64,000 nt of DNA from Candidatus Bathyarchaeota archaeon (GCA_963717465.1 OY970340.1:96001-160000), one strand, 5' to 3'. Positions 21,041-38,507 are shown, numbered from the stretch's first letter. Numbers and translations: made by a program. The notes: a model not told the origin generated them from the letters alone.

Positions 21041-22402
21041 TTATCCCCATGTTGGGTAATCAAAACCCATATCTTTGAACTCTTTTGTAAATCGGTTATA
21101 GTGGTCCACTAATTCCTTCCTTGGTTTCAAAGTTTCCTGGTCATAGTATTCATAAAGGTTATGTGATAGCTGACCAAAGTCAAAAGCCTTCATAGCTGGT
21201 TCAAATTTCTTGATCCACTCTTTTATGAGCTTGTTGCCTTCACTTACTTTTGTTCCAGCCGCTGCTCTTGTGAATTCACTGCCAAACCTTGCGCTTATCG
21301 CAGGGAAAGTGCCTACCATCCACATTCCTTCTATCCCAGCTACACAACAAGTCATAACTGCCGCCGCTGTTCCATACCAGTCAACTTCATTCATAGGTTG
21401 ATTTAGACCAATTCCGCTAGTAAGCCATGGAGCTTTTATGTTTCTTTCTGCAGCTAAACCTACCGCTGAATTACTCCAAAAGACATCCGCACCTATGTAT
21501 TGATTATCAATGGTGTTGCTCATAGCCTGAGTGAATGAGCCATCAGCATAAGCCATCTGACCTATAGAGTGAGCCATAGATTCAAGTACTGATTCTTCTG
21601 GACCACTAATATACGCGTACAATGTAGGACTGGAACTCTGCCATGGAACAATTCCATGCTGCATAGCAAAGTAGGCAAGATTAATTCTATCAATGACTAT
21701 TCTCATGTCTTGCAGTATGTGTACTGGCATCATGCAGTTCCTAGGTGTGTAGTAGCCAGGGTCAAAAGCTTGCATCAAAGCAACCATGCTCGTTGCAGTC
21801 TCGGGAAAACCAAGTAACATGCCAGGTCTTCCAGCAGCACGCGCCGCAGCAGTCATCAGTTCACATTCAGTGTGAACCATCAGGGTTTCAGTAGGCGTTC
21901 CTCCTGTCGGTTTCTGACCAAAAGACGCCTCAATAATCGCGGGTATCATCCCGTCCGTCGTCGGTTCGCGAGCCATAAGATAAACAGCATCTCTCCATTG
22001 TCCTACGTCACTGCCCATCCAACCGCCAGCATTCAAACAGTATGGATGCTGCTTATCTTCAGGAGCTCTAATGTGCATTCTTAGTATATCTCTGCCTGTT
22101 CCCCACTCAACCTCATGCTTTCTTGTCTTAACAACTTCTTTAAGTTCATTTTCAGTGAACTTGACGAGGTGCTTAGTGTCTTTGCAATACAAACCGCATT
22201 GAACCAACAATTGTATGCCGGCTTCAAAAATAGCATCAGCCATTGCTGCATCCGACATAATTGGTTCGCCGTCAAATTTAATCTTGTAGTCTTGCACTAG
22301 TTTCTTGAGGATTGTTGGAAAATACGTGTTTTCAAATTCGTCTTCTTTCATTATTGGACCCGTTCGGGTTCTTTCTAAAACTTCCCACAATAAATGTCCC
22401 AT
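21041..22402 (-). CDS. MtmB-family corrinoid methyltransferase lacking pyrrolysine
   Basis: ERTRTGP, ADAIFEAG...G.YCKDT and AGRPGM..G.PET motifs. No in-frame TAG. Confidence 0.85.
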   Translation of the reverse strand: MGHLLWEVLERTRTGPIMKEDEFENTYFPTILKKLVQDYKIKFDGEPIMSDAAMADAIFEAGIQLLVQCGLYCKDTKHLVKFTENELKEVVKTRKHEVEWGTGRDILRMHIRAPEDKQHPYCLNAGGWMGSDVGQWRDAVYLMAREPTTDGMIPAIIEASFGQKPTGGTPTETLMVHTECELMTAAARAAGRPGMLLGFPETATSMVALMQAFDPGYYTPRNCMMPVHILQDMRIVIDRINLAYFAMQHGIVPWQSSSPTLYAYISGPEESVLESMAHSIGQMAYADGSFTQAMSNTIDNQYIGADVFWSNSAVGLAAERNIKAPWLTSGIGLNQPMNEVDWYGTAAAVMTCCVAGIEGMWMVGTFPAISARFGSEFTRAAAGTKVSEGNKLIKEWIKKFEPAMKAFDFGQLSHNLYEYYDQETLKPRKELVDHYNRFTKEFKDMGFDYPTWG

Positions 22403-22618
22403 ATTTTTTTCACCTTGCTTGCTTATTCTTTTCTTTTATCTTTTAATTATTTCTATTCCCGTGCAGCGTTTTGTTCATTCAATAGCTATGTTAGCTCGCA
22501 TAGATCAGAACATTCAGATTCTACCAAGGCAATGTTAGTTTTGATGTTGCATTTTTTAGAATTGTTTTTTGCATTCATTTTTTTTATCACGGGTTGCTAA
22601 TATATGCGTTCTGATAGA

Positions 22619-22730
22619 TAATTAAGTTAAATCATAAAGCAATTTCAGCTTTCGACACAAAACGGAAATAATTAGCCCATTGATAACAAATATTGTTGCA
22701 TTTCAACTTTTTTTTTGGCACAATGTGCAA
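22619..22730 (-). promoter_or_regulatory. Regulon promoter module 1 (mtmB-like gene)
   Basis: taattaag TATA, tttcgacacaaaa box, and cacaatgtg 100 bp from the TATA. Confidence 0.8.
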
Positions 22731-22832
22731 TCAATCTTTTAAGTTCCTTATTATTTTGGCTTAAACTGCCCAGGTGAAAACTGCTAAAAATGAAAGTAGC
22801 GTGGAGTAAGTAACAATGCTGCTTCGTGTCGA

Positions 22833-23441
22833 TTAAGACACGTCAACGGGTACTTTTGATGTGTGATCGCTTGTATTTTTATTGGGATTTGATTGTTTTG
22901 AGAGGTCAAAAAGGGCTTCCAAGTTTCGCAGCGAAAACGGCATTGGGGCGGACTTGCCCGTATGAAACATGACAGCGTGGGTGTTAAAGTTTCTTGGTCG
23001 GTGTTGCATTACCATCGATTCTTTTTGTACTTCATTAAACAATTCGATATAATCGTCGTAACTCTTGTGCACTGATATTACAAACCAGTTATTTCCCGAT
23101 AAACCTAGATCTTCAAGAACGCATAATACCTGAGGGTGTTTTTTCATTAATGCACGAAATTCAGAAGGATGAGCTGCATTTACTGTCTCAGGCGTTGAGG
23201 CGAATGTAAATACGATAACGTTTAAGCCTAATTTGTGGAAATCAGGAATTACAGTGTATTCTTTTATGTAACCTTCCTGCTCCAGCTTTCTCCTTCTCCT
23301 GGACAATGTCGTATTATTTATTCCAAGAGTTTTTGCAATTTCCCTATCGCTTTTGCCACCTAGCGCCATCAGAGCGAACAAGACTTTCAGTTTTTCCTGA
23401 GTCTTCTTGTCCAACGCACCCTCTTTGTTGGAATTACTCAT
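22833..23441 (-). CDS. Lrp/AsnC-like transcriptional regulator (paralog 1)
   Basis: KSDREIAKTLGINNTTLSRRRRKLEQEGYIKEYT HTH followed by a RAM-like domain. Confidence 0.85.
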   Translation of the reverse strand: MSNSNKEGALDKKTQEKLKVLFALMALGGKSDREIAKTLGINNTTLSRRRRKLEQEGYIKEYTVIPDFHKLGLNVIVFTFASTPETVNAAHPSEFRALMKKHPQVLCVLEDLGLSGNNWFVISVHKSYDDYIELFNEVQKESMVMQHRPRNFNTHAVMFHTGKSAPMPFSLRNLEALFDLSKQSNPNKNTSDHTSKVPVDVS

Positions 23442-23682
23442 AGAGTGAAATACACTGCTGACAGTTTTAAGTTTTCTTATTTTGCATGTCTAATAATAAA
23501 ATAGTAATTTCATGCAAAAATATTGGCTTAAAACGCAACAAAATACTAACTCTTAACCTTTTTCCGCTCTTCCGCTTGATGAGTTTCCATATAGTTATCA
23601 TGAGACATAAAGAATAATCTGCTTATTAACGGAAGAAGAAAAGGGATTTTTTTGCTTGGATTTCTTAAGACGTCTTGGCAGT

Positions 23683-24102
23683 CTACTCTGGTAGACCTGG
23701 AAACTCGCCTTTAATCTGCTGATAAACCTTCTTTAATGGCTCTTCAACTGGCGCCATGAAACCCAGATCACCCAGGTCACCCGACAACAGTGACATGGCT
23801 CCTTGCGAAAACAACGCGTCAGCACCCATCTTACCAGACCACCAATCATTTAGGTATTTAAGCTTAAGATACTGAATAGCCGCATTAGCCTCATCAACAC
23901 TACCCTTATTCACAACCCACTTCTTACCCTTCGAACCAATCTGCCAAACAACATCAGGAACATCACCAATACTCAACTCAACAATCATGTCATTCTCCTG
24001 ATCCTTACACGCATCAATAATAGCAGGATCATCAGCAAGCTTAGAATACAACTTATACGCGAAATTCATCAACTTATCTTCATAAGACATAACATTTTCC
24101 AC
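23683..24102 (-). CDS. SCP2 (sterol carrier protein 2)-like lipid-binding protein
   Basis: Size and pattern (W.I...K..VNKG...A...SGKMGADALFSQGAM...GDL) fit the SCP2 fold. Confidence 0.6.
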   Translation of the reverse strand: MENVMSYEDKLMNFAYKLYSKLADDPAIIDACKDQENDMIVELSIGDVPDVVWQIGSKGKKWVVNKGSVDEANAAIQYLKLKYLNDWWSGKMGADALFSQGAMSLLSGDLGDLGFMAPVEEPLKKVYQQIKGEFPGLPE

Positions 24103-24182: not shown

Positions 24183-24836
24183 TTAAGTTTTGCCTACGAG
24201 CATTCGTGCTTTTTTGATTGCGTCGCCGCAGTCTGCACCCCAAGTATCAGCCTTAATCCGCTTGCAGAAATCATCAGTCATCGGAGTACCGCCAACAAGC
24301 ACCTTATACTTCTTACGCAACCCACGCTCAACAAGCGTATCTACTAATGCTCTCTGATACGACATACTGCTAGTCATCAACGCACCCATAGCAACAATAT
24401 CAGCATGAACCTCTTCAGCCTTCTTCACATAGTCCTCGGTTGGAATCTCTTCACCTAAGTCATAAACGTCAAAGCCATCGGTACGCAACATGTCAGCAAT
24501 CAAGTTCTTGCCGATGCTGTGGATGTCACCGAAAGCCGTGCCAATTACGACTATGCCTTTTGCCTTTGGCAGCTTGTCTTTGGGATACTTTTCTTTGAGA
24601 TAGTTAACTGCAGCAGTCATCGCGTTAGCAGCCATAATCACGTAGGGTAGAGGATATTCAAAGCGGCCAAAACGGTCACCAACCTCTTTGATGCCAACAG
24701 ATAAGCCTTTCTCGATAGCATCCATAATCTCCAGCTTGTTCTCAACAGCTTCTTTTGCCGCTGCAACAGCCTTTTCCTCATCATAGTCAATGATTGCTTT
24801 AGCGAGGTGTTCAAGTACTTCAGCTTTAGTTACCAT
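24183..24836 (-). CDS. Methyltransferase cognate corrinoid protein (MttC/MtbC-like), copy 1
   Basis: GDIHSIGKN B12-binding motif, GALMTSSM, VGG, and N-terminal cap domain. Confidence 0.95.
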   Translation of the reverse strand: MVTKAEVLEHLAKAIIDYDEEKAVAAAKEAVENKLEIMDAIEKGLSVGIKEVGDRFGRFEYPLPYVIMAANAMTAAVNYLKEKYPKDKLPKAKGIVVIGTAFGDIHSIGKNLIADMLRTDGFDVYDLGEEIPTEDYVKKAEEVHADIVAMGALMTSSMSYQRALVDTLVERGLRKKYKVLVGGTPMTDDFCKRIKADTWGADCGDAIKKARMLVGKT

Positions 24837-24861: not shown

Positions 24862-26451
24862 TTAGAATCTTGCGCCTGTGCCTGATTTGTCTATTGTGTA
24901 GCCGCCGATCTGGTACATTTTATCGTATCTGGCTATGATTGCATTCATTCTGTCTGCTACTTCTTTTGGTGGCAGTGGAGCAGGGAAGTCTTTAATGATC
25001 TTCTGGGTTAAAGCGTTTGCACGATCATCCATGCATTTCTTGTCCTCGATCCATCGTAGATATTGTCTAACTTCCCACAAACCGTAACCGTGACGCATCG
25101 GAGCGAACATTAATTCCATCATATTTTTCACTGTATCCTTGTCCTTCATGAAGTCGCCTCTGGGACCCTTATTAAGCCACCCTTCAGGTTGGTAACTCTT
25201 GGCTGAAAAGTCAACGTCCCTGAAATACCACTTCATTATTCTAATCATTTCAGCGCATATAGCATAACCCATCATGTTGATTCCGTTTGGACCTACGGTT
25301 GTGGACCATTCTCCTGTCTGATCAGTACCGTTTTGGAATGCATTAAGCAAATGCCAACTCATCATGCCGTTTTGCGTATCAGAACCACCAGCGCCAACCG
25401 ATCCTACGGCTTGGCCAGGCCACATCGTAGCTTTTGGTCGACTGTAATTGCGGTGCCAGAAGTTCACGTGAATAGCAAGTGCCTTACTAAATATTTCTTC
25501 AGTGGTTGCTAATTGCTGAGTGTATGGGTCCATAGGCATGACCAGATCGTAAGTCATAACTGGGACATGGCCTTTCCCAACTCCGTTCAATCCCAAACTT
25601 AAACCTACTGACATCGATAAAGCTGCGGCAACAGTAACTGCGTAAGCTCCCGTTAAGCTGCATGGACCTTGGAATCCAGGTATGCAAACATCTGTGTAGT
25701 CTATAAGCAGAGGTCTGCTCTTCGCCCAGCCTTCTAAAGTTCCGCTCATTCTGTCACTTGTTTTTTGGCCGTAAACTAGACCTGGTGTGTCTCCATGGTT
25801 AGTTATGAATGGTCTCTTCGCAAGCTCATCAAATCCTCCGAGAACCTCAGCGGCTAAATCAGTGTAACATTCAATATGATCAATTGCGTCAATATGCCAA
25901 ATATGCTTTGTAGTGCATTGAATAGTACTGTTGAGATCATGAGTATCCACTGGCAAACCAGCCTCAGCCAAATCCATAGGTAAGTATATGGGGCTAGTCA
26001 TGTCATACTCGGGGAAGTACTCAACAACTTTTTGCTCTTTCCAGTTGTCAGCATCTACTCCATCTCGGAATTCAAATAGTCGTGTATCAGGATTCCATTT
26101 TGCATAAAGGGCCATTATGCCGAAAGCTCCAACAAAGACATTGTTGCTTCCTGCTTGCATAAAGCAGTCTTCTTTAGGAGCCCTACCTGGCAGAACCAAG
26201 TTGCTCGGCACTGCGTCTATGCCTTCGACTGCAATAGCTTCAGGAATTTTTACGATTCCCTTCTTCTCATCAACAACGGTGCAACCTATGTCTTTGTAGA
26301 TTTTTTGAAGCTTAGGTGTGAGACCTCCAACCCCAACTCTTTCTAATAGATAAACTGCGGCTTGATGTATTGACATTAGTTCTTCTCTCGTCGCTATAGG
26401 CGGAGAAAATCTCTTAGGTATATTTGTTCCAGTTCTCATTTTTCTTTTCAA
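24862..26451 (-). CDS. MttB-superfamily methyltransferase, pyrrolysine-free, copy 1
   Basis: IHQAAVYLLERVG, GPCSLTG, D.Q.G, GPRGDF and PLPPKEV..MNAII pattern; directly upstream of the corrinoid gene; no TAG. Confidence 0.8.
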   Translation of the reverse strand: MKRKMRTGTNIPKRFSPPIATREELMSIHQAAVYLLERVGVGGLTPKLQKIYKDIGCTVVDEKKGIVKIPEAIAVEGIDAVPSNLVLPGRAPKEDCFMQAGSNNVFVGAFGIMALYAKWNPDTRLFEFRDGVDADNWKEQKVVEYFPEYDMTSPIYLPMDLAEAGLPVDTHDLNSTIQCTTKHIWHIDAIDHIECYTDLAAEVLGGFDELAKRPFITNHGDTPGLVYGQKTSDRMSGTLEGWAKSRPLLIDYTDVCIPGFQGPCSLTGAYAVTVAAALSMSVGLSLGLNGVGKGHVPVMTYDLVMPMDPYTQQLATTEEIFSKALAIHVNFWHRNYSRPKATMWPGQAVGSVGAGGSDTQNGMMSWHLLNAFQNGTDQTGEWSTTVGPNGINMMGYAICAEMIRIMKWYFRDVDFSAKSYQPEGWLNKGPRGDFMKDKDTVKNMMELMFAPMRHGYGLWEVRQYLRWIEDKKCMDDRANALTQKIIKDFPAPLPPKEVADRMNAIIARYDKMYQIGGYTIDKSGTGARF

Positions 26452-26498
26452 TCTCCCGTTATTTATTTGAATCTGTAAGTCTAAGTCGCCTTGTTAGG

Positions 26499-26610
26499 TA
26501 TTTAACTTAAATCATAAGCGATTCTCTTCTTCTGCTACAAAACTTGTCTGCCCACAGAAATAACCATCAAGATTGCTTCATTATGAGACGTTTTTTAATA
26601 CATTGTGCAA
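26499..26610 (-). promoter_or_regulatory. Regulon promoter module 2 (mttB-like 1)
   Basis: tatttaac, ttctgctacaaaa, and tacattgtg at 100 bp. Confidence 0.8.
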
Positions 26611-26776
26611 AATTTTTTTTGGCTTTTAACGAGAAAAGCAGTAAGACGCGATTAGTGAAAGAAGTCTTCAGGAAAAAAGTCTTGCGTAACACCAGGCGTT
26701 TTCAGTATATAAACACATTCGGCTTCTAAGCGACATACAAAAATTAAGAAAATAAAAAGGGGAGTGTAGTTGTTTT

Positions 26777-29092
26777 TTATGGTCCAATAGGTCCGATGTT
26801 GGCTGAGTACACTTTTGCAAGATTAACTTTGAAGCACCAAGCTCCAAGTTCAGGACTAAGCTGCTCTGGACTATCTGGCACTGTAACGTTGATGTTCCAG
26901 TCTGCCCATCCATAAAGTGTTGGTTCCTCAGCTGGTAATTCAGGACGCCACCAGCCATGCTCGGGTGAAACGATTTTTGGATTTACTCCGAAGTCGTAAC
27001 GTACTGTCTGCATGCATCTGCCAAGCGGCGTCTCAATGTAAATCCATTCGCCATCGCCAATGCCCATGTTACGAGCCGTCAGTGGATGCATTTTTACACG
27101 TGGAAACGGACGCAAATGACGCATCAATGTTAAATGTCGATGTTCGCCATGCTGTGCTTCTTGGAATCTGGCTCCACTGCACATAATCAACGGATAATCT
27201 TTTGCAATATCAGGCGCACTTACCGGAGTCCAAGCGCACTCCACATAGTACGGCAGAGGATCAAACCCAAAGTCCTCCAGAATCGTTGAGTAGAATACAA
27301 CTTTGCCTTCAGGGGTTCCGAAGCCTCTAATCAATCCAGTGGTTGGATCAATTTGCTCGTACTTCTTGAACGTGGGGTTCCATGGTGGTACACCTTTCCA
27401 TTCGCCTATAACTTGCTTACGTGTCCAGCCTACTGGCTCATAGAACCAATCTTGGAACTGCTCTAAAGTCTTCCATTTCCAAACTCTATCGATTTTTTCG
27501 TTACCCAACATTTTAGCAGCAATGTGTCGGAATATTACCGCGTCGTCTTCTAAGTCCCACAATCCCGGTATCTTTTGAGCTACTGCACGATCGCCTGCAA
27601 TCTCAAACTCGATTGATCCTTGACATGAAATGGTTGCATATCCAGAAGGTCTCTCGAATTGACTAGTACCAGGCAGCACATAATCTGCTAACATGGCCTC
27701 AGGTGTCATCGAAGCGCATTCCACATAAACGAACAGTTCAAGCTTCTTAAGAGCTTCATAAATCTTCTTAGTGTTCGGATAACCTCGCATTGGACCTATT
27801 TCACCAGCCAACATCGCCTTAACAGGGTAAGGTTTTTCCGTCAAAATTGCCTCTATCGTTGCAGGCCAATTTGGAGCAATTGGTCCGGTATGTGGACCAC
27901 CCTTCCAATAGCCTTTGTCCATTCCTGCCTCAACAAGCGCTGCACCACCTGGCATCGTTAGCATCTTATACTTGTCCGACCCTATCTGTTTCTCCATTAT
28001 GCCCATATCAGTTTCATTAGCACAATCTGCAGCGGCTTCAGCACCCGAATAGAACTTGGGTTTTTGGTGCAGATATTCTCCGCCTTCTATGTCTATGTTG
28101 CCTGTTAACGCGGGCAGCATATATTTTGATCGAACGTTGTTTAATGAGTTCCTGCCTGCCGATTCGATTGCATAACCGAATGGGAAAGTGCATGGACTGT
28201 TTTTCACTACCCACCTAGCTGCCTCTCTGATTCTCTCGGCAGGAATCCAAGTTATTTCCGCAGCTTTCTCAGGAGTATACTGCTTGGCTCTTTCTTTGAG
28301 CTTGTCAAATCCAAAAGTCCACTTCTCCACGAAATCATGATCGTACAAGTCTTCTTCGATGATCACGTTTATCATAGCCATATTTAGTGCAGTGTCAGTT
28401 CCAGGCCTAATCGCCAACCACATTTCAGAAAGTCTAGTTGTTTCCGTATATTTTGGATCGACATTGAGCATTTTTACGCCAGCCTCTATTCCTGCAACAA
28501 ATCCTGGCCAAGAATACGTCCAAGATTCACTTGGGTTTGTGCCAGTTGTAAAGATACCCTTTGTTTTACCGGGAGTTATCATTGCATACGTTAATCCCAC
28601 GCCGTAGCCTAATCCTAAGGCTTGGTACGTGGGTCCAGCTCATGTGGTAGCTGCAGCAGAACCCCAGTTTGGGGAGCCTATCAACATACAGAGTTGATAC
28701 AGTCCCAAAGCAAGGTTTGCGGCTCGACCTGTGCCGTGGAATCCGCATACGGATTCGCCGCCATTCTTTGCTATGATTTCTTTTAGTTTATCAGATATTT
28801 CACTAATTGCTTGTTCCCAAGATATTTTCTGCCATTTGCCTTCGCCACGCTTGCCTATACGCTTCATCGGGTACATTGGCCTATCCTTATGATAAATGTA
28901 CTCAACACCATACTTCCACTTCTGACAATAAGGACCAGGATTAAATGGACTATCCCAATCAGGCTCAATCTTTGTGATTTTTCCGTTCTCAACCGTCTCG
29001 ACAAGTTGGCAGGAACCAGTACTGCAAAAACCGCAAACGCATCTATGAATCCCATCGAAACTCTTTGGATCTTCAAGTTTTTCACTCATCAT
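26777..29092 (-). CDS. Mo/W-bis-PGD oxidoreductase, acetylene-hydratase-like clade, copy 1; 771 aa with in-frame TGA (codon 151, probable selenocysteine)
   Basis: CxxCxxxxC..C Fe-S motif, ISWEQA, IRPGTD, ADYVLP and HGWW motifs. ORFs 28640..29092 and 26777..28600 are in the same frame and separated only by TGA at 28642-28640. Confidence 0.9.
28596..28633 (-). promoter_or_regulatory. SECIS-like hairpin 6 nt downstream of the in-frame UGA (copy 1)
   Basis: CCCACG-UA-CC-A-AGCCU-UAGGAUU-AGGCU-AC-GG-CGUGGG; conserved in the paralog. Confidence 0.7.
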
Positions 29093-29167
29093 TCTATCTC
29101 CTATTTTCTCTTTAACCCATTTTTATTGTGCTTTCAACACAAGCCTTAACATATGCGGTCTGATTAC

Positions 29168-30560: not shown

Positions 30561-30762
30561 AGTCGCTTTAACGTTCCTCCGATTAAAAGAAACAGAAGAT
30601 AGAACAGAAATTCAAAGCGGAATTGTAAAGCAAAGTTCAGCTTAATGCTTGAACTGTCACACTAAGCAAATTACTAAAAATAGTAATATTTGGCGTTATG
30701 CACAAAAGACTCACTATTCGCCAATTTAGCCATTAGTAGAAACTATTATCTCGTCAGCGTTT

Positions 30763-31341
30763 TTAAGAACGGGATTTAAGGGGTTTTCGAGTTGAAATTT
30801 CAGGTTGGAATAAAGCATTCAAGCTTCGCAATGAGAACGGCCTTGGAAACTTATTGCCTGTGCGGAACATAACGCTACGTGTTTCCACATGTGGTCGCTG
30901 AGGTAATAACAGTGTTTCTTTTTGCACTTCCTTAGACAATTCTACGAAACCATCATAGTTCTTATGCACAGATATCATGACCCAGTTCGTTGATTCTAAG
31001 CCTTGATCCTCTATAGCGCAAAGCACTTCAGGATGTCTCTGCATTAATTCACGAACTTTGCTAGTTTGTTCTGGTGTTATCACTTCAGTAGTTGAGGCAA
31101 ATGTAAATACGATAACATCTAGCCCCATTTTGTACAAGTTAGGGATTATAGTGTACTCTTTTATGTAACCATCCTGCTCCAGCTTCCTTCTCCTCCTAGA
31201 CAATGTCGTGTTACTAATTCCTAAAATTCTAGCAATTTCTCTATCGCTTTTACCGCCTAGCGCCATTAAGGCAAATAGAACTTTCAGGTTTTCCAAGGCT
31301 TTTCTATCTAACGTATCGTGCGTGCTCAAAAACTTATTCAT
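30763..31341 (-). CDS. Lrp/AsnC-like regulator (paralog 2)
   Basis: Same HTH as 22833..23441. Confidence 0.85.
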   Translation of the reverse strand: MNKFLSTHDTLDRKALENLKVLFALMALGGKSDREIARILGISNTTLSRRRRKLEQDGYIKEYTIIPNLYKMGLDVIVFTFASTTEVITPEQTSKVRELMQRHPEVLCAIEDQGLESTNWVMISVHKNYDGFVELSKEVQKETLLLPQRPHVETRSVMFRTGNKFPRPFSLRSLNALFQPEISTRKPLKSRS

Positions 31342-31484: not shown

Positions 31485-32090
31485 CTATGCATCAATGGGG
31501 TTGATTGTCTTGCCATCCCGCTTGTTTTTGACGCCATGCAATGGTTTGACAGATTGAAACAATGATTCCATGTTTCTGAACGAGAATGGTTTTGGAAACA
31601 TCTTATCCGTATGAAACATGAAAGTGTGAGTTTCGATGTGCGGTGGTTGATGAAGGGATAGTAATTCGTTTTGCACTTTTTTAGACAGGTCTATGAAACC
31701 ATCATAGTTCTTGTGCACAGTTATGCCAAGCCAGTTTGTACCTTCTAAACCTTGATCTTGTAGTATGCACAGAATTTCGGGATATTTCTGAATTAAATCA
31801 TGAGCCTCTTTAGATTGCACTGGTGTCACAACATCAGTAGTAGATGAAAAAGAAAACACTATAACCTCTAATCCCATTTTATGCAAATCAGGAATTATAG
31901 TATACTCTTTTATGTAACCATCCTGCTCCAGCTTCCTTCTCCTCCTAGACAATGTGGTATTACTAATCTCCAAAATCCGGGCAATCTCTCTGTCACTTTT
32001 ACCACATAACGCCATTAGAGCAAACAAAACTTGCAGGTTTTCCAGTAGCTTCTTATCTAACGTATCTTGCTTGCCCAAAAGCTTATTCAC
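31485..32090 (-). CDS. Lrp/AsnC-like regulator (paralog 3)
   Basis: Same HTH as paralogs 1 and 2. Confidence 0.85.
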   Translation of the reverse strand: MNKLLGKQDTLDKKLLENLQVLFALMALCGKSDREIARILEISNTTLSRRRRKLEQDGYIKEYTIIPDLHKMGLEVIVFSFSSTTDVVTPVQSKEAHDLIQKYPEILCILQDQGLEGTNWLGITVHKNYDGFIDLSKKVQNELLSLHQPPHIETHTFMFHTDKMFPKPFSFRNMESLFQSVKPLHGVKNKRDGKTINPIDA

Positions 32091-32254: not shown

Positions 32255-32908
32255 TTAGGTTTTGCCTACGAGCATTCGTGCCTTCTTAATGGCGTCACCG
32301 CAGTCTGCACCCCAAGTATCAGCCTTAATCCGCTTGCAGAAATCATCAGTCATCGGAGTACCGCCAACAAGAACCTTATACTTCTTACGCAACCCACGCT
32401 CAACAAGCGTATCAACGAGTGCTCTCTGATAAGACATACTGCTAGTCATCAACGCACCCATAGCAACAATATCAGCATGGACCTCTTCAGCCTTCTTCAC
32501 ATAATCCTCAGTTGGAATCTCTTCACCTAAATCATAAACATCAAAGCCATCAGTACGCAACATATCAGCAATCAAGTTCTTACCAATACTGTGAATATCA
32601 CCAAACGCTGTACCAATAACAACTATGCCTTTTGCCTTTGGCAGCTTATCTTTGGGATACTTTTCCTTGAGATAATTAACTGCAGCAGTCATCGCATTAG
32701 CAGCCATAATCACGTAGGGTAGTGGGTATTCGAAGCGGCCAAAGCGGTCACCAACTTCTTTGATGCCAACGGATAAGCCTTTCTCGATAGCGTCCATAAT
32801 CTCCAGCTTGTTCTCAACAGCCTCTTTAGCCGCTGCAACAGCCTCATCCTCATTATAATCAATGATAGCCTTAGCCAAATGCTCAAGAACTTCAGCCTTA
32901 GTCACCAT
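32255..32908 (-). CDS. Corrinoid protein, copy 2
   Basis: 214 of 217 residues identical to 24183..24836. Confidence 0.95.
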   Translation of the reverse strand: MVTKAEVLEHLAKAIIDYNEDEAVAAAKEAVENKLEIMDAIEKGLSVGIKEVGDRFGRFEYPLPYVIMAANAMTAAVNYLKEKYPKDKLPKAKGIVVIGTAFGDIHSIGKNLIADMLRTDGFDVYDLGEEIPTEDYVKKAEEVHADIVAMGALMTSSMSYQRALVDTLVERGLRKKYKVLVGGTPMTDDFCKRIKADTWGADCGDAIKKARMLVGKT

Positions 32909-32932: not shown

Positions 32933-34507
32933 TTAGAATCTGGCGCCCGTTCCTGTTTTGTCTGCCGTGTAGCCGCCTATTTGGTACATCTTATCATACT
33001 TAGCAATAATTTCATTCATTTTGTCAGCTACGTCTTTTGGTGGTAATGGATTTGGAAATTCCTTTACGATCTTGTTAGTCAGGGCGAAAGCGCGATCATC
33101 CATGGTAAGCTTGTCTTCAATCCACCGAAGATATTGCCTCGTTTCCCATAAGCCATAACCATGACGCATAGGATAGAAGCCAGTATCTACCATGTTTTGC
33201 AAAGTGTATTTTTCCTTCATGAAGTCTCCTCTTGGGGTCTTCGTGAGCCATACATCTTTCATGTATGCGCCGGATGAAAAGTCTAAGTCCTTGAAATACC
33301 ATGTCATCATTCGAAGCATTTCAGCTGTCACAGCATAGCCCCATGGATTGATTCCATTCGGACCTACGGTGGAACTCCAACATCCTGTCTGATCAGTAGC
33401 GCTTTGGAGGGCGTTAAACAGATTGTAACTCATTAGGCCATTTTGTGTGTCTGAACCGCCACTGTAACCTCCTATGCTTTGTCCAGGCCACATTGTTGCT
33501 TTTGGCAAACTGTAGTTGCGGTGCCAGAAGTTCACATGAAGAGATAGCGCTTTACCGAATTGATCACCACATGCTGCTAGCATTTGCGTGTACGGCTCCA
33601 TGGGCATCACCAGATCATAGGTCATGACGGGGATATGGCCTTTTGCGACTCCGCCCATTCCCAAACCTAAACTTACCGCCATTCCTATAGATGAAGCCAC
33701 AGTCACTGAGTAGGCGCCCGTTAAGCTAATGGGACCTTGGAAACCAGGTATGCACACGTCAGTGAAATCTATAAGCAGAGGCCTGTTATTCTTCCAGCCT
33801 TCCAACGTACCAGTCATTCTGTCGCAAGTCTTTTGTCCATAAACTAAGCCTGGAGTGTCTCCATGGTTAGTTATGAACGGTCTCTTCGCAAGCTCATCAA
33901 ATCCTCCAAGAACCTCAGCAGCTAAATCAGTATAGCATTCAATATGATCAATTGCATCAATATGCCAAATATGCTTGGTAGTACATTGAATAGTGCTGTT
34001 AAGATCATGAGTATCCACTGGCAAACCAGCCTCAGCCAAATCCATAGGCAGGAAAATTGGGCTCGTCATATCGAACTCTGGGAAGTACTCAACAATTTTC
34101 TGCTCTCTCCAGTTGTCAGCGTCAACACAGTCTCTGAATTCAAAAAGTCGCGTAGCCGGATTCCATTTACCATAGAGAGCCATAATCCCAAAACCGCCTG
34201 CAAGAGTTCTGTTGCTTCCAGCGGATAAGAAACAGTCATTCTGGGGCGTCCTACCTGGCAAAATCTGCTCACTTGGTATTGCATTTACGGCTTCTACTGC
34301 AAGACCCTGAGACATCTTAGCAATTCCTTTCTTCTCGTCAACAGTGCAACCTAAATCCTTATAGACTTTGCAAAGCTTAGGAGTAACGCCTCCTACTCCA
34401 ATTCTTTCCAGCAGAAACATTGCGGCTTCATGGATTGACATTAATTCTTCTTTCGTTGCTAAAGAAGGGTTAGTGAACCTTCTAGGTACATTTATTCCTG
34501 TTCTCAA
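32933..34507 (-). CDS. MttB-superfamily methyltransferase, pyrrolysine-free, copy 2
   Basis: Full-length paralog of 24862..26451. Confidence 0.8.
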   Translation of the reverse strand: MRTGINVPRRFTNPSLATKEELMSIHEAAMFLLERIGVGGVTPKLCKVYKDLGCTVDEKKGIAKMSQGLAVEAVNAIPSEQILPGRTPQNDCFLSAGSNRTLAGGFGIMALYGKWNPATRLFEFRDCVDADNWREQKIVEYFPEFDMTSPIFLPMDLAEAGLPVDTHDLNSTIQCTTKHIWHIDAIDHIECYTDLAAEVLGGFDELAKRPFITNHGDTPGLVYGQKTCDRMTGTLEGWKNNRPLLIDFTDVCIPGFQGPISLTGAYSVTVASSIGMAVSLGLGMGGVAKGHIPVMTYDLVMPMEPYTQMLAACGDQFGKALSLHVNFWHRNYSLPKATMWPGQSIGGYSGGSDTQNGLMSYNLFNALQSATDQTGCWSSTVGPNGINPWGYAVTAEMLRMMTWYFKDLDFSSGAYMKDVWLTKTPRGDFMKEKYTLQNMVDTGFYPMRHGYGLWETRQYLRWIEDKLTMDDRAFALTNKIVKEFPNPLPPKDVADKMNEIIAKYDKMYQIGGYTADKTGTGARF

Positions 34508-34570
34508 TTTTTTTCTCTCCTAATTTTTAATTGTTTTTGACACGAAATTAAATATATGCGGTCTGATGTG

Positions 34571-34682
34571 TATTTAAGGTTAAATTATAAGTCAGTTTCA
34601 GCTTTTGCCACAAAATAAGACATTTCAACAATTGTCAATGACATTATCACATAATGAACAGAGTTTTTGGCACAATGTGCAA
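34571..34682 (-). promoter_or_regulatory. Regulon promoter module 7 (mttB-like 2)
   Basis: tatttaag, ttttgccacaaaa, and cacaatgtg at 100 bp. Confidence 0.8.
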
Positions 34683-34828
34683 CAATATATTTTGAACCTT
34701 TATCTGAAAAATCACAAATCAGAAAACATTTTAAAAGGAAAACAAGAAAACAAATGTCCGTTTTTTCACATTAACGATAAATAAGCAACTAAACAAAAAA
34801 ATAAAAAAAGAGTATTGAGGTTTTCTTC

Positions 34829-37145
34829 TTAAGGTCCCATGGGCCCGATGTTGGCTGAGTATACTTTTGCAAGATTAGCCTTGAAGCACCATGCACCAAG
34901 TTCAGGGCTAAGATGCTCTGGGCCGTCAGGCACTGTAACGTTAATGTTCCAGTCTGCCCATCCATAAAGCGTTGGTTCCTCAGCCGGCAACTCAGGACGC
35001 CACCAGCCGTGTTCTGGGTCGATTATCTTGGGGTTAACACCAAAATCATAACGTACTGTCTGTCTGCATCTGCCAAGCGGTGTTTCAATGTAAACCCATT
35101 CGCCATCTCCGATACCCATATTCCGTGCTGTAAGTGGATGCATCTTTACACGTGGAACCGGACGTAAATGACGCATTAACGTGAGATGTCGATGTTCACC
35201 ATGCTGCGCTTCTTGGAATCTGGCTCCACTGCACATAATCAGCGGATAGTCTTTTGCAATGTCTGGTGCACTGATCGGTGTCCATGCACATTCCACATAG
35301 TACGGCAACGGATTGTACCCAAGTTCTTCTAAGATGGTTGAGTAGAACGCAACTTTGCCCTCAGGGGTACCAAAGCCTCTAACCAGCCCAGTCTCTGGAT
35401 CGATCTCTTCGTATTTCTTGAACCTTGGCTCATAGGGCGGAACACCCTTCCATTCTTCAATAACTTGCTTTCGTGTCCAACCAGCGGGCTCGTAGAACCA
35501 AGCTTGAAATTCCTCTAGAGTCTTCCAATGCCAAACTTCATCAACTCTTTGTTTACCGACAACGGCGACAGCTAGGTCTCTGAATATGATGCTGTCGTCT
35601 TTTAGATCCCAAAGTCCAGGTATTTTCTGGGGTAGTGCGCGGTCGCCTGCAATCTCAAACTCAATCTGGCCTTGACATGAACAGGTTGCGTACCCAGATG
35701 GCCTCTCAAATTGACTGGTACCGGGCAGCACGTAATCTGCTATCATAGCCTCTGGAGTCATGGAAGCGCATTCTACGTAAACAAAGAGGTCAAGTTTCTT
35801 TAAAGCCTCGTAAACTTTCTTGGTGTTCGGATAGCCTCTCATGGGACCTACTTCACCGGAAAGCATAGCTTTAATGGGGTATGGTTTTCCCGTTAAAATC
35901 GTATCTATCGTGCTAGGGAAGTTTGGACCTATTGGCCCAGCGGATGGAACTCCCTTCCAGTATCCTTTATCCATTCCTGCAGCAATAATTGCACCTGCGC
36001 CAGGATAAGCCAGCATCTTATACTTGTCCGCTCCTATCTGGTTTGACATCATTGACATGTCACAAGCGTTTATGACATCAGTATGCATCTCAGTACCTGA
36101 GTGGAATTTGGGTTTTGCATGCAGATATTCGCCGCCTTCTACGTCAATGTTGCCTGTTAACGCAGGTAACATATATTTTGATCGGATGTTGCTCAAAGAG
36201 TTCCTGCCTGCTGATTCGATTGCGTAGCCGAATGGAAAATCGCATGGATGATTTTTCGCTATAAATCGGGCAGCTTCTTTTATCTTTTCAGCTGGAATCC
36301 AAGTAATTTCCGCAGCCTTCTCAGGCGTATACTGCTTAACGCGCTCTTTGAGCTTATCAAATCCAAAACACCATTTCTCCACAAAATCATGATCATACAA
36401 GTCCTCCTCAATGAGAACGTTCAACATAGCCATATTCAGCGCAGTATCAGTTCCAGGCCTAATTGCTAACCAAACTTCTGAAAGTCTACCAGTCTCAGTA
36501 AATCTTGGATCAACAGTGAGCATTTTTACGCCAGCATCTACACCTGCAACAAACCCAGGCCACGAATACGTCCAAGACTCTCTTGGGTTCGTACCAGATG
36601 CAAAGATACCCTTAGTCTTACCAGGAATTATGTTTGCATACGTTAATCCCACGCCATAGCCTACTCCTAAGGCTTGGATCGTGGGTCCGGCTCATGTCTG
36701 AGCAGCAGCGGAACCAAAGTTTGGGCTACCCATCATGATAAAGAAAGCAGCCTGTCCAAGACCCAGATTCGCAGCTTCGCCCGGTGCCGCTAAAGCCGCA
36801 AATTGATTCTCCACCGTACTTTTCCTTGATTTCTTTCACTTTTGTGGATATTTCTTCGGTCGCTTGTTCCCATGATATTCTTTGCCATTTGCCTTCTCCA
36901 CGTTTGCCTATTCTTTTTATTGGATACATCGGTCTGTCCTTGTTGTAAATGTATTCTAAACTGTACTTCCATTTTACACAATAGGGGCCCGGATTGAACG
37001 GGCTTTCCCAATCAGGCTCGACCTTTGTGATTTTTCCATTCTCAACAGTCTCAACAAGTTGACAGGAACCAGTACTGCAAAAACCGCAAACACACCTGTG
37101 AATCCCATCGAAACTCTTTGGATCTTCAAGTTTTTCACTCATCAT
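34829..37145 (-). CDS. Mo/W-bis-PGD oxidoreductase, copy 2; in-frame TGA at 36694-36692; one extra base near 36776 (probable sequencing indel)
   Basis: Span is 2317 nt, i.e. copy 1 length plus 1. The corrected frame reads GTGRAANLGLG...GSPNFGSAAAQT-TGA-AGPTIQALG. Confidence 0.88.
36648..36685 (-). promoter_or_regulatory. SECIS-like hairpin 6 nt downstream of the in-frame UGA (copy 2)
   Basis: CCCACG-AU-CCA-AGCCU-UAGGAGU-AGGCU-A-UGG-CGUGGG. Confidence 0.7.
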
Positions 37146-37204
37146 CCTATCTCCTATTTTTACTGTGTTTTTAGCACAAAAATGAATGTATGCAGCCTGA
37201 TGGA

Positions 37205-37316
37205 TATTTAAGGTTAGATTATAAGGCAGTTTGGATTTTTGCCACAAAATAAGGCATATAAGCAATTCTAATTGACATTATAGCATGAAAAGTATTTATT
37301 TTGGCACAATGTGCAA
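37205..37316 (-). promoter_or_regulatory. Regulon promoter module 8 (Mo/W enzyme 2)
   Basis: tatttaag, ttttgccacaaaa, and cacaatgtg at 100 bp. Confidence 0.8.
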
Positions 37317-37474
37317 CAGCACTTTAGGAACCTTTGTTAGGTACGAAAAACCACTCTTTTCTTGTTGATTGCTTTCCAGTTAGTTTTTGACTGATTAGTT
37401 AGACTTTGCAATTTAGAGTATCCTGAGATTGCTTTCTAGAGGAAATGATTCTTCGAGATTCTGAAAAATTCTAA

Positions 37475-37587
37475 CACATTGTGTTAAAAAAAACCGCAAT
37501 TTAATGCAACATTTCAAAACATTAGTTACCTCTTTCAGCTTGTTTTGAGGCAGAAATTTGAAAGCAATATACGACTTAGCTTAAATA
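37475..37587 (+). promoter_or_regulatory. Regulon promoter module 9, inverted (SDR pseudogene)
   Basis: cacattgtg, ttttgaggcagaa and cttaaata in mirrored order; spacing 104 bp. Confidence 0.7.
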
Positions 37588-37660
37588 ACATTGTAATCTC
37601 CTATTATTTTTCAATAAGAAAAGTTGGAGATTTTGACAAAGATAGAATTGAGGAATTTAA

Positions 37661-38507
37661 GATGGACATGAAGAATTTATTTGGTTATGAAAAGCAGACA
37701 GTGGTGGTTGTCGATGCCGCCTCTGGAATTGATAAGGAAACAGCTTAGATATTAGTTGAACTTGACGCCGAAGTGTACGGTTTAGATATTCAGGAAACCA
37801 AGACTTCAGGTGTTAAGTACATTAATGTAGACTTGAGGAAAAACAATCAATCGAGGCTGCAATCGCGAAGTTGCCTTCAAAGGTTGACAAGATTTTCAAT
37901 GTTGTAGGAATTGGCGAATCGCCGAATCGCGTTGATATAGTTCTAATAAATTTCGTTGGACACAGACATATCATTGAAAATCTTCTTCCACGGATGCCAG
38001 ATGGCAGTGGAGCTATTGCGATAGTTTCATCCCTTGGCGGCTTGGCTTGGTTGATGAACCTGCAGAATGTGCAAACTTTTCTTGCCATACCAGATTGGGA
38101 AGGCGCCGTTGCATGGCTTGAAGAACATAAAGAGGATCCTGAAATCATCGGCGGACCAAAGCAGAACATTAGAGAATATAATTTTTCCAAAGAATGTCTC
38201 GTTGCATACACCAAGGCACGCGCTTATCAGCTATCTCAAAGAGGCATTAGATTAAACACAATCATGCCTGGTGTCACTCAAACTCCGTTGTTGAAGGGAA
38301 TGACCGATGAACAGGGGAAAAAACATAATATCACTTATTGGACGTTACGCGAAGGCTGCTGAACAGGCATGGACGCTCGTATTTCTAAACAGCAATTTAG
38401 CAAGTTACATTAGTGGAGCAGACATCGTCGTTGACTATGGATTCTCAGGCGGCATATACACCGGTCAAGTAGATCTGTCAAAGACAGGTTGGCTGCCCTC
38501 TGTTTAA
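37661..38507 (+). pseudogene. Short-chain dehydrogenase/reductase (3-alpha-HSD/coniferyl-alcohol DH-like), disrupted
   Basis: YNFSK, IRLNTIMPG.TQTPL and SYISG..I.VDYG motifs. In-frame TAG at 37746, two frameshifts, and GxxxGxG degraded to DAASGID. Confidence 0.8.

Follow-up and report, generated by a model that had tools for sequence, protein, structure and literature searches.

Positions 21041-38507 of a 64,000-nucleotide stretch of a Candidatus Bathyarchaeota archaeon genome (the window) most likely constitute one node of a dispersed catabolic regulon, whose likely substrates are aromatics bearing methoxy or methyl groups, or else molecules of a steroid-like kind. The island carries two minus-strand cassettes of the same order, each with a selenocysteine (Sec)-type Mo/W enzyme, an MttB-like methyltransferase, a corrinoid protein and one or more Lrp-like regulators. 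An MtmB-like gene, an SCP2-fold protein, a broken short-chain dehydrogenase (SDR) and a 1.67-kb CDS-free block complete it. This layout, described in an earlier note on the same DNA, is borne out by ORFs, Pfam matches and a predicted fold. The family assignments hold as well: the Mo/W enzyme belongs to the acetylene-hydratase clade with Sec, both methyltransferase types are free of pyrrolysine (Pyl), the regulators are Lrp-like and the 139-aa protein SCP2-like, each by fold.

Organization of the island

Gene calls in the window combine ORFs and Pfam matches, and are on the minus strand unless stated otherwise. The island is flanked by a radical-SAM gene (19285-20748) and GlmS (38738-40606), and contains the following features.

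21041..22402, minus: MtmB-like methyltransferase, 453 aa, no pyrrolysine codon (PF05369, E 4e-47)
22593..22742, minus: promoter module before the MtmB-like gene (alignment; nhmmer E 6e-30)
22833..23441, minus: Lrp/AsnC-like regulator, 202 aa (HTH_24, E 2e-8)
23683..24102, minus: 139-aa protein, SCP2-like predicted fold (AF2 model and Foldseek)
24183..24836, minus: corrinoid protein 1, 217 aa, motif D-I-H-S-I-G (B12-binding, E 1e-21; B12-binding_2, E 5e-19)
24862..26451, minus: MttB-like methyltransferase 1, about 525 aa, Pyl-free (PF06253, E 4e-15)
26475..26623, minus: promoter module before MttB-like 1 (alignment; nhmmer E 1e-27)
26777..29092, minus: Mo/W bis-MGD enzyme copy 1, 771 aa (Pfam Molybdop_Fe4S4, Molybdopterin, Molydop_binding)
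28596..28633, minus: in-ORF hairpin, candidate SECIS (alignments, pair counts)
29093..30762, minus: CDS-free block (ORF scan, promoter and motif searches)
29148..29291, minus: promoter module before Mo/W copy 1 (alignment; nhmmer E 2.5e-27)
29450-29562 and 30333-30436, minus: conserved small-RNA motif (motif family by nhmmer; folds)
29745-29880, 30075-30226 and 30423-30574, minus: orphan promoter modules in the CDS-free block (alignment; nhmmer)
30763..31341, minus: Lrp-like regulator, 192 aa (HTH_24, E 2e-9; in the regulator alignment)
31485..32090, minus: Lrp-like regulator, 201 aa (HTH_24, E 1e-6; in the regulator alignment)
32255..32908, minus: corrinoid protein 2, 217 aa (Pfam; 98.6% aa identity to copy 1)
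32933..34507, minus: MttB-like methyltransferase 2, 524 aa (PF06253, E 3e-16; 74% aa identity to copy 1)
34551..34695, minus: promoter module before MttB-like 2 (alignment; nhmmer E 2e-31)
34829..37145, minus: Mo/W enzyme copy 2, frame broken (two pieces, 81% and 85% identical to copy 1)
37185..37329, minus: promoter module before Mo/W copy 2 (alignment; nhmmer E 2e-31)
37465..37589, plus: divergent promoter module facing the SDR (nhmmer E 2.5e-6)
37600..38507, plus: SDR remnant in at least four frame pieces (stop-to-stop ORFs; adh_short, adh_short_C2)

In cassette 1 the 139-aa gene takes the place of the second regulator of cassette 2. One extra nucleotide near 36777, some 83 nt before the TGA, breaks the frame of Mo/W copy 2 and is either a real mutation or an assembly indel; UvrA, UvrB and ArgRS are likewise split by frameshifts in the same assembly, where frameshifts are also common among the regulon genes. 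In the SDR remnant, the adh_short and adh_short_C2 matches are confined to the C-terminal part, and the genome has a paralog of 74% identity at 1.263 Mb.

Promoter modules and regulators

The island genes share one repeated promoter, as the earlier note had described. This module of ~135 nt is present in nine copies, eight of which align on the minus strand with three conserved boxes and a TATA-like box, while the ninth, on the plus strand, faces the SDR. Genome-wide, nhmmer finds 44 matches, and those mapped lie directly upstream of Mo/W, MttB-like, enoate-reductase-type, KstD-like, SCP2 and corrinoid genes; no module precedes the Lrp-like genes themselves. The common modules suggest that the island genes are co-regulated. 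Within the CDS-free block, which has no ORF above 65 aa on the gene strand, each of the three orphan modules leads into structured non-coding sequence with T-runs, and the block matches no Rfam family.

The regulator at 22833..23441 (AF2 model, pLDDT 72) combines a wHTH with a beta-alpha-beta-beta-alpha-beta domain, as do Lrp/AsnC (feast/famine) regulators. Its top Foldseek matches are nearly all Lrp/AsnC-family chains (E 1e-7 to 7e-4), with ST1022, PH1519 and E. coli Lrp reached at E 1e-7. Unlike that family, the protein has no Pfam AsnC_trans_reg match, is about 200 aa long, including an additional tail at the C-terminus, and belongs to a set of 25 loci associated with a single promoter module. 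Across 12 paralogs, mean identity is 66% in the HTH half and 39% in the second domain.

Selenocysteine-containing Mo/W enzyme

Copy 1 contains one in-frame UGA (28640-28642), read as Sec151; the UGA of copy 2 is at 36692-36694. In alignment the TGA falls in the column of the metal-ligand Cys, a residue present there in 27/27 aligned homologs; the TGA is retained in 10 Mo/W paralogs and one 42%-identical paralog. Machinery for Sec is encoded in the genome, with SepSecS (E 6e-120) and two tRNA-Sec matches above the family cut-off. The candidate SECIS hairpin lies downstream of the UGA, from which a spacer of 6 nt separates it. In its alignment 93.4% of cells are paired and four pairs are changed on both sides; its covariation score is reached by 0 of 500 shuffles, and its fold z-scores are weak (-0.5 to -1.5).

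Copy 1 is homologous along its full length to the Pelobacter acetylenicus acetylene hydratase (2e7z; residues 18-755, E 1.5e-102), whereas matches of the Mo/W enzyme to DMSO/TMAO reductases are much weaker (E about 1e-28 and weaker). Both have an N-terminal [4Fe-4S] motif and bis-MGD domains, and both appear to be cytoplasmic and to stand alone without a partner subunit; copy 1 has no Tat motif. However, the metal ligand is Sec here and Cys in acetylene hydratase, and is followed by Ala instead of Ile. Directly following the second cluster Cys, 10/10 Mo/W paralogs have Ser, where acetylene hydratase has an Asp with a catalytic role. Given Sec as the ligand and the loss of this Asp, the enzyme is judged not to be an acetylene hydratase.

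The characterised enzymes nearest to acetylene hydratase are catechol dehydroxylases, according to PMC7028382. By their description there, the soluble Gordonibacter catechol dehydroxylases (Dodh/Cldh) share the bis-MGD branch of the window's enzyme, have a similar size and carry no Tat signal, but they use Cys and have an adjacent small 4Fe-4S protein. The same layout occurs at a Gordonibacter faecis homolog of the Mo/W enzyme, 38% identical and followed by a gene for a 73-aa 4Fe-4S ferredoxin. A reductive dehydroxylase would need such a ferredoxin partner, and none lies beside the Mo/W genes within the window.

Methyltransferases and carrier proteins

The MtmB-like protein matches MtmB (PDB 1l2q) at E 5e-37, and the Pyl of that protein is aligned with a Gly here. 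For MttB-like 1 the best PDB match is MttB (7xcm), at E 4e-16 and over the N-terminal part only, and its clade is very rare, with only 9 of 1.84 billion representatives at E <= 1e-30. In common with the non-Pyl MttB superfamily (MtgB, MtpB, MtcB, MtyB), the island proteins score above the PF06253 cut-off, lack a Pyl codon and have a cognate corrinoid protein adjacent; unlike those members, they form a very distant and rare clade accompanied by an SCP2-fold protein instead of a betaine transporter. The seven near-identical corrinoid copies in the genome share 94-100% aa identity against 84-94% DNA identity, and the adjoining MttB-like genes share 71-84% DNA identity. These values are consistent with a carrier common to the cassettes and almost invariant among them.

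The 139-aa protein, whose gene follows the corrinoid gene in 5 cassettes, has no Pfam match even at E 10. Its AF2 model (pLDDT 70) finds SCP2 proteins as the best Foldseek PDB matches (1wfr, E 2.6e-3, TM 0.48; 2cx7; UbiJ-SCP2), none of them at E <= 0.001.

Two known systems offer comparisons. The AbeABC/EmtAB steroid C-methyl transferases, likened here by family grouping (PMC11912376), also use an MtmB-family methyltransferase 1 (MT1) without Pyl, and a KstD-like flavoenzyme adjoins in two sister cassettes; in contrast, the window's MtmB-like gene has no KstD-like neighbor, the host is an archaeon and the second methyltransferase (MT2) is of MtrH type. The corrinoid O-demethylases, Methermicoccus Mto and MtgABC of Ca. 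Baizosediminiarchaeum, have the same four-part logic (MT1, corrinoid protein, MT2 and activase) that feeds a C1 carrier, but with another MT1 family, the Bathyarchaeia MtgB being an unrelated protein of about 300 aa (PMC10989822).

A dispersed family within the genome

The earlier note read the island as a pathway with 'two substrate variants', but the island is not self-contained. It is one node among 10 Mo/W paralogs and 15 of methyltransferase 1 (9 MttB-like, 6 MtmB-like), and the MtrH-type MT2 and RACo are encoded about 650 kb outside it. There, MtrH, RACo, a URO-D methyltransferase and another corrinoid protein are encoded next to an MttB-like copy at 745 kb; RACo is encoded once more at 2.82 Mb.

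Mo/W and methyltransferase genes are partly linked across this genome. Of the 10 Mo/W copies, only four have an MttB-like gene within 4 kb, forming four cassettes with at least three gene orders, while five have no methyltransferase gene of either type (MttB-like or MtmB-like) within 8 kb, and 5 of 9 MttB-like copies have no nearby Mo/W gene. The paralogous cassettes arose by duplication and are therefore not independent observations. Sister loci add KstD-like (FAD_binding_2) genes directly beside MtmB-like genes (L009, L097), enoate-reductase-type genes next to 4 Mo/W copies, SDRs, a CrtC-type lipocalin, two true SCP2 matches and GcvH genes near two MttB-like copies. No BCCT or betaine/choline-type transporter occurs in any flank scanned.

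Linkage in other genomes

Outside this genome, linkage of Mo/W and methyltransferase genes is at about chance level. Among class relatives, a corrinoid or methyltransferase gene accompanies the Mo/W homolog at 0/4 loci, and in a wider set a corrinoid protein lies within 10 kb at 3/76 loci and is absent at 73/76. Two of the 76, both bacterial, show operonic linkage, in that a corrinoid methyltransferase operon closes with an acetylene-hydratase-like gene. Their orders are URO-D, corrinoid, RACo, MtrH, URO-D, acetylene-hydratase-like gene, TRAP transporter (L044) and corrinoid, URO-D, acetylene-hydratase-like gene (L016). The unit conserved elsewhere pairs MttB-like with corrinoid and includes one more small ORF, whose alignment to the 139-aa protein in L087 is only weak; these units lie on contigs of just 2.8 and 4.0 kb, on which no Mo/W gene is seen. 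The linkage data speak largely against an obligate coupling of the two chemistries, yet the idea is not refuted, because the two bacterial loci join both families in operons.

Function of the regulon

A hydrophobic substrate, as the earlier note suggested, is plausible in view of the SCP2-fold carriers, the enoate-reductase-type, KstD-like and SDR genes of sister cassettes and the lack of a betaine-type transporter in the scanned flanks. The best explanation, which we give about an even chance, is that a ligand-inducible regulon demethylates hydrophobic compounds of aromatic or steroid-like type while the Mo/W enzyme alters a ring oxygen function. Lrp/AsnC-type sensors, with a conserved DNA-binding half and a divergent, putatively ligand-binding half, would bind palindromic boxes of the module before each catabolic gene. 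MttB-like and probably also MtmB-like proteins, whose families are clear, would act as substrate-specific methyltransferases 1, passing the methyl group to Co(I) of the near-invariant corrinoid protein, and the SCP2-fold protein may carry poorly soluble substrate or product. The MtrH-type enzyme encoded elsewhere would move the methyl group on to a pterin carrier, presumably H4MPT given the MtrH family, and RACo, also encoded elsewhere, would re-reduce cobalt. The Mo/W enzyme, predicted to be cytoplasmic with one [4Fe-4S] cluster and Sec as metal ligand, may change an oxygen function of these same compounds; the likeliest reaction is removal or addition of a ring hydroxyl, as by a dehydroxylase or hydratase. 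Against this explanation stand the near-chance linkage of the two modules in other genomes, the quaternary-amine substrates of the characterised non-Pyl MttB relatives that the searches turned up, the missing ferredoxin partner beside the window's Mo/W genes and the many frameshifted regulon genes of this assembly.

Narrower pathways can be drawn from the same genes. In lignin or polyphenol breakdown, the methyltransferases would O-demethylate methoxy-aromatics to catechols, from which the Mo/W-Sec enzyme would take off a hydroxyl. For lignans, this route of O-demethylation and dehydroxylation is divided among different gut bacteria. We consider this possible but doubtful for the island: the Gordonibacter homolog with its small ferredoxin, the L044 and L016 operons, the nearness of catechol dehydroxylases to acetylene hydratase (PMC7028382) and the O-demethylation known in Bathyarchaeia (PMC10989822) speak for it, but neither MttB-like nor MtmB-like proteins are among the known O-demethylase families, Bathyarchaeia MtgB is unrelated (PMC10989822), Pfam finds neither a ferredoxin partner nor a transporter in the window, and operonic linkage is confined to 2/76 loci. 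A steroid or terpenoid route can be advanced only tentatively. An AbeA/EmtA-type MtmB-like enzyme would remove an angular methyl after KstD-type desaturation, enoate-reductase-type enzymes and SDRs would reduce rings, and the Mo/W enzyme would hydrate or dehydroxylate the scaffold. The KstD-like genes beside MtmB-like genes, the enoate-reductase-type genes flanking 4 Mo/W copies and the genome's SCP2 proteins, SDRs and CrtC-type lipocalin agree with this; however, the window's MtmB-like gene has no such neighbor, and enzymes of the acetylene-hydratase clade are not known to act on steroids. AbeA/EmtA do group with MtmB (PMC11912376), but a methanogen is reported to need a non-Pyl MtmB homolog for tetramethylammonium and choline use (PMC13044021).

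It is rather unlikely that the Mo/W and methyltransferase cassettes serve different substrates and stand together only through segmental duplication and a common regulator and promoter family. Their separable distribution in the genome, the missing linkage at all four class-relative loci and at 73/76 wider loci, and the MttB-like plus corrinoid units on short contigs fit such independence, but four cassettes hold both genes within 4 kb in at least three orders, all under the same promoter module, and two bacterial operons join the families. Quaternary-amine demethylation of glycine-betaine type by the MttB-like and MtmB-like proteins, while the Mo/W enzyme has no part in it or uses an N-oxide, is improbable. 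Every characterised non-Pyl MttB relative that the searches turned up acts on a quaternary amine and not on an O- or C-methyl group, and GcvH near two MttB-like copies recalls archaeal clusters described in PMC11291895; yet the scanned flanks hold no betaine/choline transporter, the cassettes come with SCP2-fold carriers, the clade is far from characterised members (partial best PDB match, E 4e-16) and the Mo/W enzyme is much nearer to acetylene hydratase than to DMSO/TMAO reductases. Within the ligand-inducible regulon that we favor, the Mo/W and methyltransferase modules are proposed to be separable units of one regulon, with no obligate enzyme pair.

Organization of the island

The island (window 21041-38507) is flanked by a radical-SAM gene and GlmS. 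The gene inventory and coordinates that the earlier note had assigned to it proved correct when compared with ORFs and Pfam domains.

Features of the island, in 5'-to-3' order of the minus strand, followed by the outward-facing gene

37145-34829, minus strand: Mo/W enzyme copy 2, first in this order
34507-32933, minus strand: MttB-like 2
32908-32255, minus strand: corrinoid protein 2
32090-31485 and 31341-30763, minus strand: two winged helix-turn-helix (wHTH) regulators
30762-29093, minus strand: CDS-free block of 1.67 kb
29092-26777, minus strand: Mo/W enzyme copy 1
26451-24862, minus strand: MttB-like 1
24836-24183, minus strand: corrinoid protein 1
24102-23683, minus strand: 139-aa protein
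23441-22833, minus strand: third wHTH regulator
22402-21041, minus strand: MtmB-like gene, last in this order
about 37600-38507, plus strand: short-chain dehydrogenase (SDR), facing outward from the island

Mo/W copy 2 shares 81-85% identity with copy 1 and has one extra base near 36777. An assembly indel is a likely cause, because UvrB, UvrA, ArgRS, MtrH, and the corrinoid activase RACo are each likewise broken into overlapping ORFs in this assembly (L093:11068-15911, L098:11203-13150, L101:12317-15987); copy 2 is not called a pseudogene here. These split genes suggest that the assembly, a single contig, contains many indel errors, consistent with its completeness estimate of 88%. Among sequencing runs, none of RNA was listed for this genome; one DNA run, X1, contains a small share of it, and comparison of X1 with the island returned a few 151-nt contigs at 99% identity or more, in 10 of 30 bins, none of them crossing the copy-2 frameshift.

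Identity of the Mo/W enzyme

Copy 1 encodes 771 aa when one TGA is read through, with Fe4S4, Molybdopterin, and Molydop_binding domains (Pfam). Its closest solved relative in a PDB comparison is acetylene hydratase (2e7z, E 1.5e-102, residues 18-755), with which it has in common the bis-MGD fold, an N-terminal [4Fe-4S] cluster, and a cytoplasmic, monomeric context. The TGA falls on the tungsten-ligand Cys of acetylene hydratase, a column occupied by Cys in all 27 aligned homologs (38-44% identity). In acetylene hydratase the Asp directly after the second cluster Cys is catalytic. The Mo/W enzyme has Ser at this place (C-S instead of C-D); the motif CGFCSTG occurs in 10/10 paralogs, and none of 28 aligned family members has the Asp. 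Because this residue is missing, a true acetylene hydratase was ruled out, and the Mo/W enzyme is best described, from its sequence, as a predicted Sec-type member of the acetylene-hydratase branch. Thiosulfate/polysulfide reductase, the database label on homologs, was also rejected: thiosulfate reductase, the next PDB family (PsrA-type, 2vpw), matches at only E 1.5e-49, the N-terminus of copy 1 has no Tat motif, and no partner subunits accompany the enzyme.

The genome contains further relatives at 1.822 Mb. A second Sec-type Mo enzyme (U139), 42% identical, lies at L099:11090-13366 (+), and 2 kb from it, at L099:6825-9071 (+), is a 748-aa paralog of the Cys type with 31% identity; a TrmB-like regulator is nearby.

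Predicted selenocysteine decoding

The genome encodes SepSecS (E 6e-120) and two tRNA-Sec matches above the family cut-off. An in-frame UGA takes the place of a functional Cys, and together with this genomic Sec machinery it makes the Mo/W enzyme a predicted selenoprotein. Downstream of the 10 Mo/W stop codons only T-runs were seen, with no conserved 3'UTR hairpin (SECIS). A hairpin instead lies inside the ORF, at window 28596-28633 (-), separated from the 3' side of the UGA by a 6-nt spacer, and occupies the same place in nine other Mo/W paralogs. Its outer stem, CCCACG/CGUGGG, is invariant in 10/10 paralogs, a conservation that is confounded by that of the protein. In two paralogs the inner stem is preserved by paired synonymous changes in Leu codons, and another two maintain it with different sequences; the 42%-identical Sec-type enzyme forms the same fold with other bases (L099:11513-11550). 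Across the 11 aligned sequences 93.4% of cells are paired and four pairs have changed on both sides; the covariation score was reached by 0/500 shuffles, while single-sequence fold z-scores are weak (-0.5 to -1.5). The hairpin would be a candidate SECIS at the bacterial position in an archaeal genome.

A promoter-module match (E 3e-8) lies at genome 849834-849912 (-), about 3 kb from the SepSecS/tRNA-Sec locus (845.7-846.9 kb), and the regulon may be linked to Sec supply. Sec as a metal ligand in the acetylene-hydratase/catechol-dehydroxylase branch was not found in the searches made, and passages of a 2026 selenoproteome review mention neither Bathyarchaeia nor such an enzyme.

Methyltransferases and their corrinoid partners

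The MttB-like proteins match PF06253 above the Pfam cut-off, contain no in-frame UAG, and are encoded next to a cognate corrinoid protein, which places them in the non-Pyl MttB superfamily. The paralog at L010, another locus of this genome, covers profile positions 33-494 of 500. The solved relatives are remote (MttB 7xcm, E 4e-16 over the N-terminal part only; MtgB, E 3e-8), and the proteins fall outside the characterized quaternary-amine subfamilies. They are also very rare. When 5.8 billion proteins were searched by word index, 19 matched at E <= 1e-5, of which only six were non-self with at least 49% identity; among 1.84 billion representatives searched with a profile, nine reached E <= 1e-30. 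Only two of the nine are strong: the representative of the clade itself (E 9e-271) and the nearest outside it (E 5e-91), which is followed by one at 2e-40.

The MtmB-like protein matches PF05369 (E 4e-47) and has Gly at the pyrrolysine position of 1l2q; MtmB-like genes have a KstD-like neighbor only in the sister cassettes L009 and L097. The corrinoid proteins carry the D-I-H-S-I-G motif and both B12 domains. The 139-aa protein has no Pfam match and aligns to a true SCP2 paralog at only E 1.3 in BLASTP. When its model (pLDDT 70) was compared with the PDB by Foldseek, SCP2 proteins ranked highest, at a weak E 2.6e-3 and TM 0.48.

Amplification across the genome

Paralogs were counted by tblastn over the 3.05-Mb genome. 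Ten full-length Mo/W loci have at least 68% identity, and fragments and two distant paralogs were found besides; the other families comprise nine MttB-like loci (69-100%), six MtmB-like loci, seven corrinoid proteins at 94-100%, five copies of the 139-aa protein, and 25 regulator loci. An MttB-like copy at 745 kb adjoins a URO-D methyltransferase, MtrH, another corrinoid protein, and RACo; therefore a second methyltransferase and an activase exist, outside the island.

The corrinoid and 139-aa proteins encoded at this locus match the window copies residue for residue (100% identity). The corrinoid genes have 84-94% DNA identity against 94-100% in protein. For the pair at window 24183-24836 and genome 747074-747724, protein identity is 100% and DNA identity 93.7%, and therefore extreme purifying selection, not recent conversion, explains the match. 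The MttB-like genes beside them share 71-84% DNA identity. This pattern fits one corrinoid carrier that docks to common partners, with the diverging MttB-like proteins as putative substrate-specific methyltransferases.

Genes for glycine-cleavage H-protein (GcvH) lie near two of the MttB-like/corrinoid cassettes (L096:3943-4404, L101:4017-4445). The arrangement recalls the clusters of MttB-like, MtbC-like, GcvH, and MtrH genes in Asgard and TACK archaea reported in sections of PMC11291895.

A common promoter module, small RNAs, and regulators

The island contains a repeated promoter module of about 135 nt, of which eight minus-strand copies align and a ninth faces the SDR.

Elements of the promoter module

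Box 1: TTGCACATTGTGCC
Box 2: AATGCAA
Box 3: palindrome TTTTGTRGCAAAA
TTAACTTAAATATCC element: resembles archaeal BRE/TATA

The module stands ahead of both Mo/W genes, both MttB-like genes, and the MtmB-like gene, and is absent ahead of the island regulator genes. A profile of it has 44 genome matches at E <= 0.01. Those that were mapped stand directly ahead of Mo/W, MttB-like, enoate-reductase-type (Oxidored_FMN + Pyr_redox_2), KstD-like (FAD_binding_2), SCP2, and corrinoid genes. Each of the three Lrp-like genes has a 24-nt repeat immediately ahead of it (23460-23483, 31361-31384, 31437-31460), apparently a separate leader or promoter element common to the regulators.

The CDS-free block holds three further promoter modules about 345 nt apart, each followed by hairpins and T-runs. 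Two of these units share a conserved motif, in which a GC-rich hairpin is followed by UAUUCACCUCUA and a second hairpin. With four copies used to build an nhmmer profile, 12 rows were obtained genome-wide at E <= 1, four being the training copies, and most rows adjoin cassettes of the same kind. No Rfam family was detected on 19000-41000 at E <= 1 apart from a single chance-level lncRNA row. When the small-RNA loops were paired with the ribosome-binding regions of island genes, 3/65 loop-target pairs scored within the top 5% set by 590 background regions, a share that in this crude test is about chance level overall. For the ig_c loop, pairing with the two Mo/W start regions reached -16.7 and -18.1 kcal/mol and is for that reason only a lead.

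The regulators are predicted to be of Lrp/AsnC type, with an N-terminal wHTH and a C-terminal RAM-type domain. Pfam detects only the HTH; the AF2 model adds a beta-alpha-beta-beta-alpha-beta domain, and nearly all of the structures that Foldseek ranks highest for it are Lrp/AsnC proteins (E 1e-7 to 7e-4). Among 12 regulators compared, mean identity is 66% in the HTH half and 39% in the second domain, which would fit many sensors addressing one operator.

Linkage of the Mo/W and methyltransferase genes

The earlier note proposed that Mo/W redox chemistry is coupled to methyl transfer, a linkage that stands only in part. Within this genome an MttB-like gene lies within 4 kb of 4/10 Mo/W copies, in at least three gene orders; with MtmB-like genes counted as well and the limit set at 8 kb, five copies have such a neighbor. 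Enoate-reductase-type neighbors accompany four of the ten, and a regulator stands alongside nine. Linkage also appears in two deltaproteobacterial operons that unite a corrinoid methyltransferase system with an acetylene-hydratase-like gene. At L016:1109-5581, corrinoid and URO-D genes lie directly upstream of it; at L044:2487-15369 the order is URO-D, MerR-B12, corrinoid, RACo, MtrH, URO-D, the acetylene-hydratase-like gene, and a TRAP transporter.

Among other relatives linkage is weak. Five same-genus genomes yielded no member of the Sec-type Mo/W clade, and only four others of 151 sampled class genomes have a Mo/W match, at 40-43% identity; none of these four has a corrinoid or methyltransferase gene near it in the contig parts examined. 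A corrinoid protein occurs within 10 kb at 3/76 wider-family loci, a set to which L016 and L044 belong, about the chance expectation in corrinoid-rich genomes, and tblastn detected no MttB-like gene at any of the 76. The MttB-like clade itself was found in 1/151 class genomes and 2/401 phylum genomes. A metagenome scan with the MttB-like alignment yielded one contig of 2.8 kb, too short for linkage, and the contig of G234 measures 4 kb. We conclude that the Mo/W and methyltransferase modules belong to one regulon, and they may act on the same compounds.

In one class relative of the same order a Cys-type homolog lies beside aldehyde:ferredoxin oxidoreductase and an iron alcohol dehydrogenase (L106:6685-11165), a context that would suit a true acetylene-to-acetaldehyde enzyme. 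This MttB-like clade was seen on just two foreign contigs, both short; on each a small divergent gene stands upstream of the MttB-like/corrinoid pair (L087:3-185 (-), L092:2083-2721 (+)), with no Lrp-like regulator on either; by eye, the gene in L087 resembles a ribbon-helix-helix protein.

Probable substrates and significance

The substrates of the island are probably hydrophobic, because its genes and their paralogs keep company with putative SCP2-fold carriers, KstD-like, enoate-reductase-type, and SDR neighbors, and a CrtC-type lipocalin, and no betaine-type transporter was found in any flank scanned. Removal of methyl groups from steroid-like compounds is a tentative reading, argued by analogy with the AbeA/EmtA precedent among MtmB relatives described in parts of PMC11912376. 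Methylated aromatic substrates, such as those derived from lignin or polyphenols, are an equally tentative reading, in which the Mo/W enzyme would act like a catechol dehydroxylase. Catechol dehydroxylases are kin to acetylene hydratase according to portions of PMC7028382, and the operons L016 and L044 point the same way. So does a Gordonibacter faecis homolog with a small ferredoxin alongside, 38% identical to the Mo/W enzyme. Gordonibacter-type soluble catechol dehydroxylases have an adjacent small 4Fe-4S electron-transfer protein; such a protein was seen at L023, a wider-family locus, but Pfam detected none beside the Mo/W genes within the window, and only the paralog MoW6 has a ferredoxin nearby. 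The Bathyarchaeia O-demethylase MtgB, of about 300 aa, is unrelated to the MttB-like and MtmB-like proteins here (excerpts of PMC10989822).

Taken as a whole, the genome hints, with low confidence, at an archaeon that has put together, and later amplified more than ten-fold, a previously undescribed anaerobic pathway for methylated polycyclic compounds, whether of the steroid, lignan, or another type. Such a pathway would join a Sec-ligated acetylene-hydratase/catechol-dehydroxylase branch to an orphan MttB branch, decode UGA through a bacterial-style in-ORF hairpin, and be run by about 25 Lrp-type sensors on one promoter module and a private small-RNA family. The MttB-like clade is among the rarest branches of a superfamily with mostly unknown substrates. 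The substrate methyltransferase, its corrinoid protein, RACo, and MtrH are clonable candidates for testing archaeal demethylation of steroid-like or lignin-derived compounds. With 10 Mo/W, 15 substrate methyltransferase, and 25 regulator genes and 44 promoter modules in one genome, the system points to a major uncharacterized form of anaerobic life on complex organic matter.
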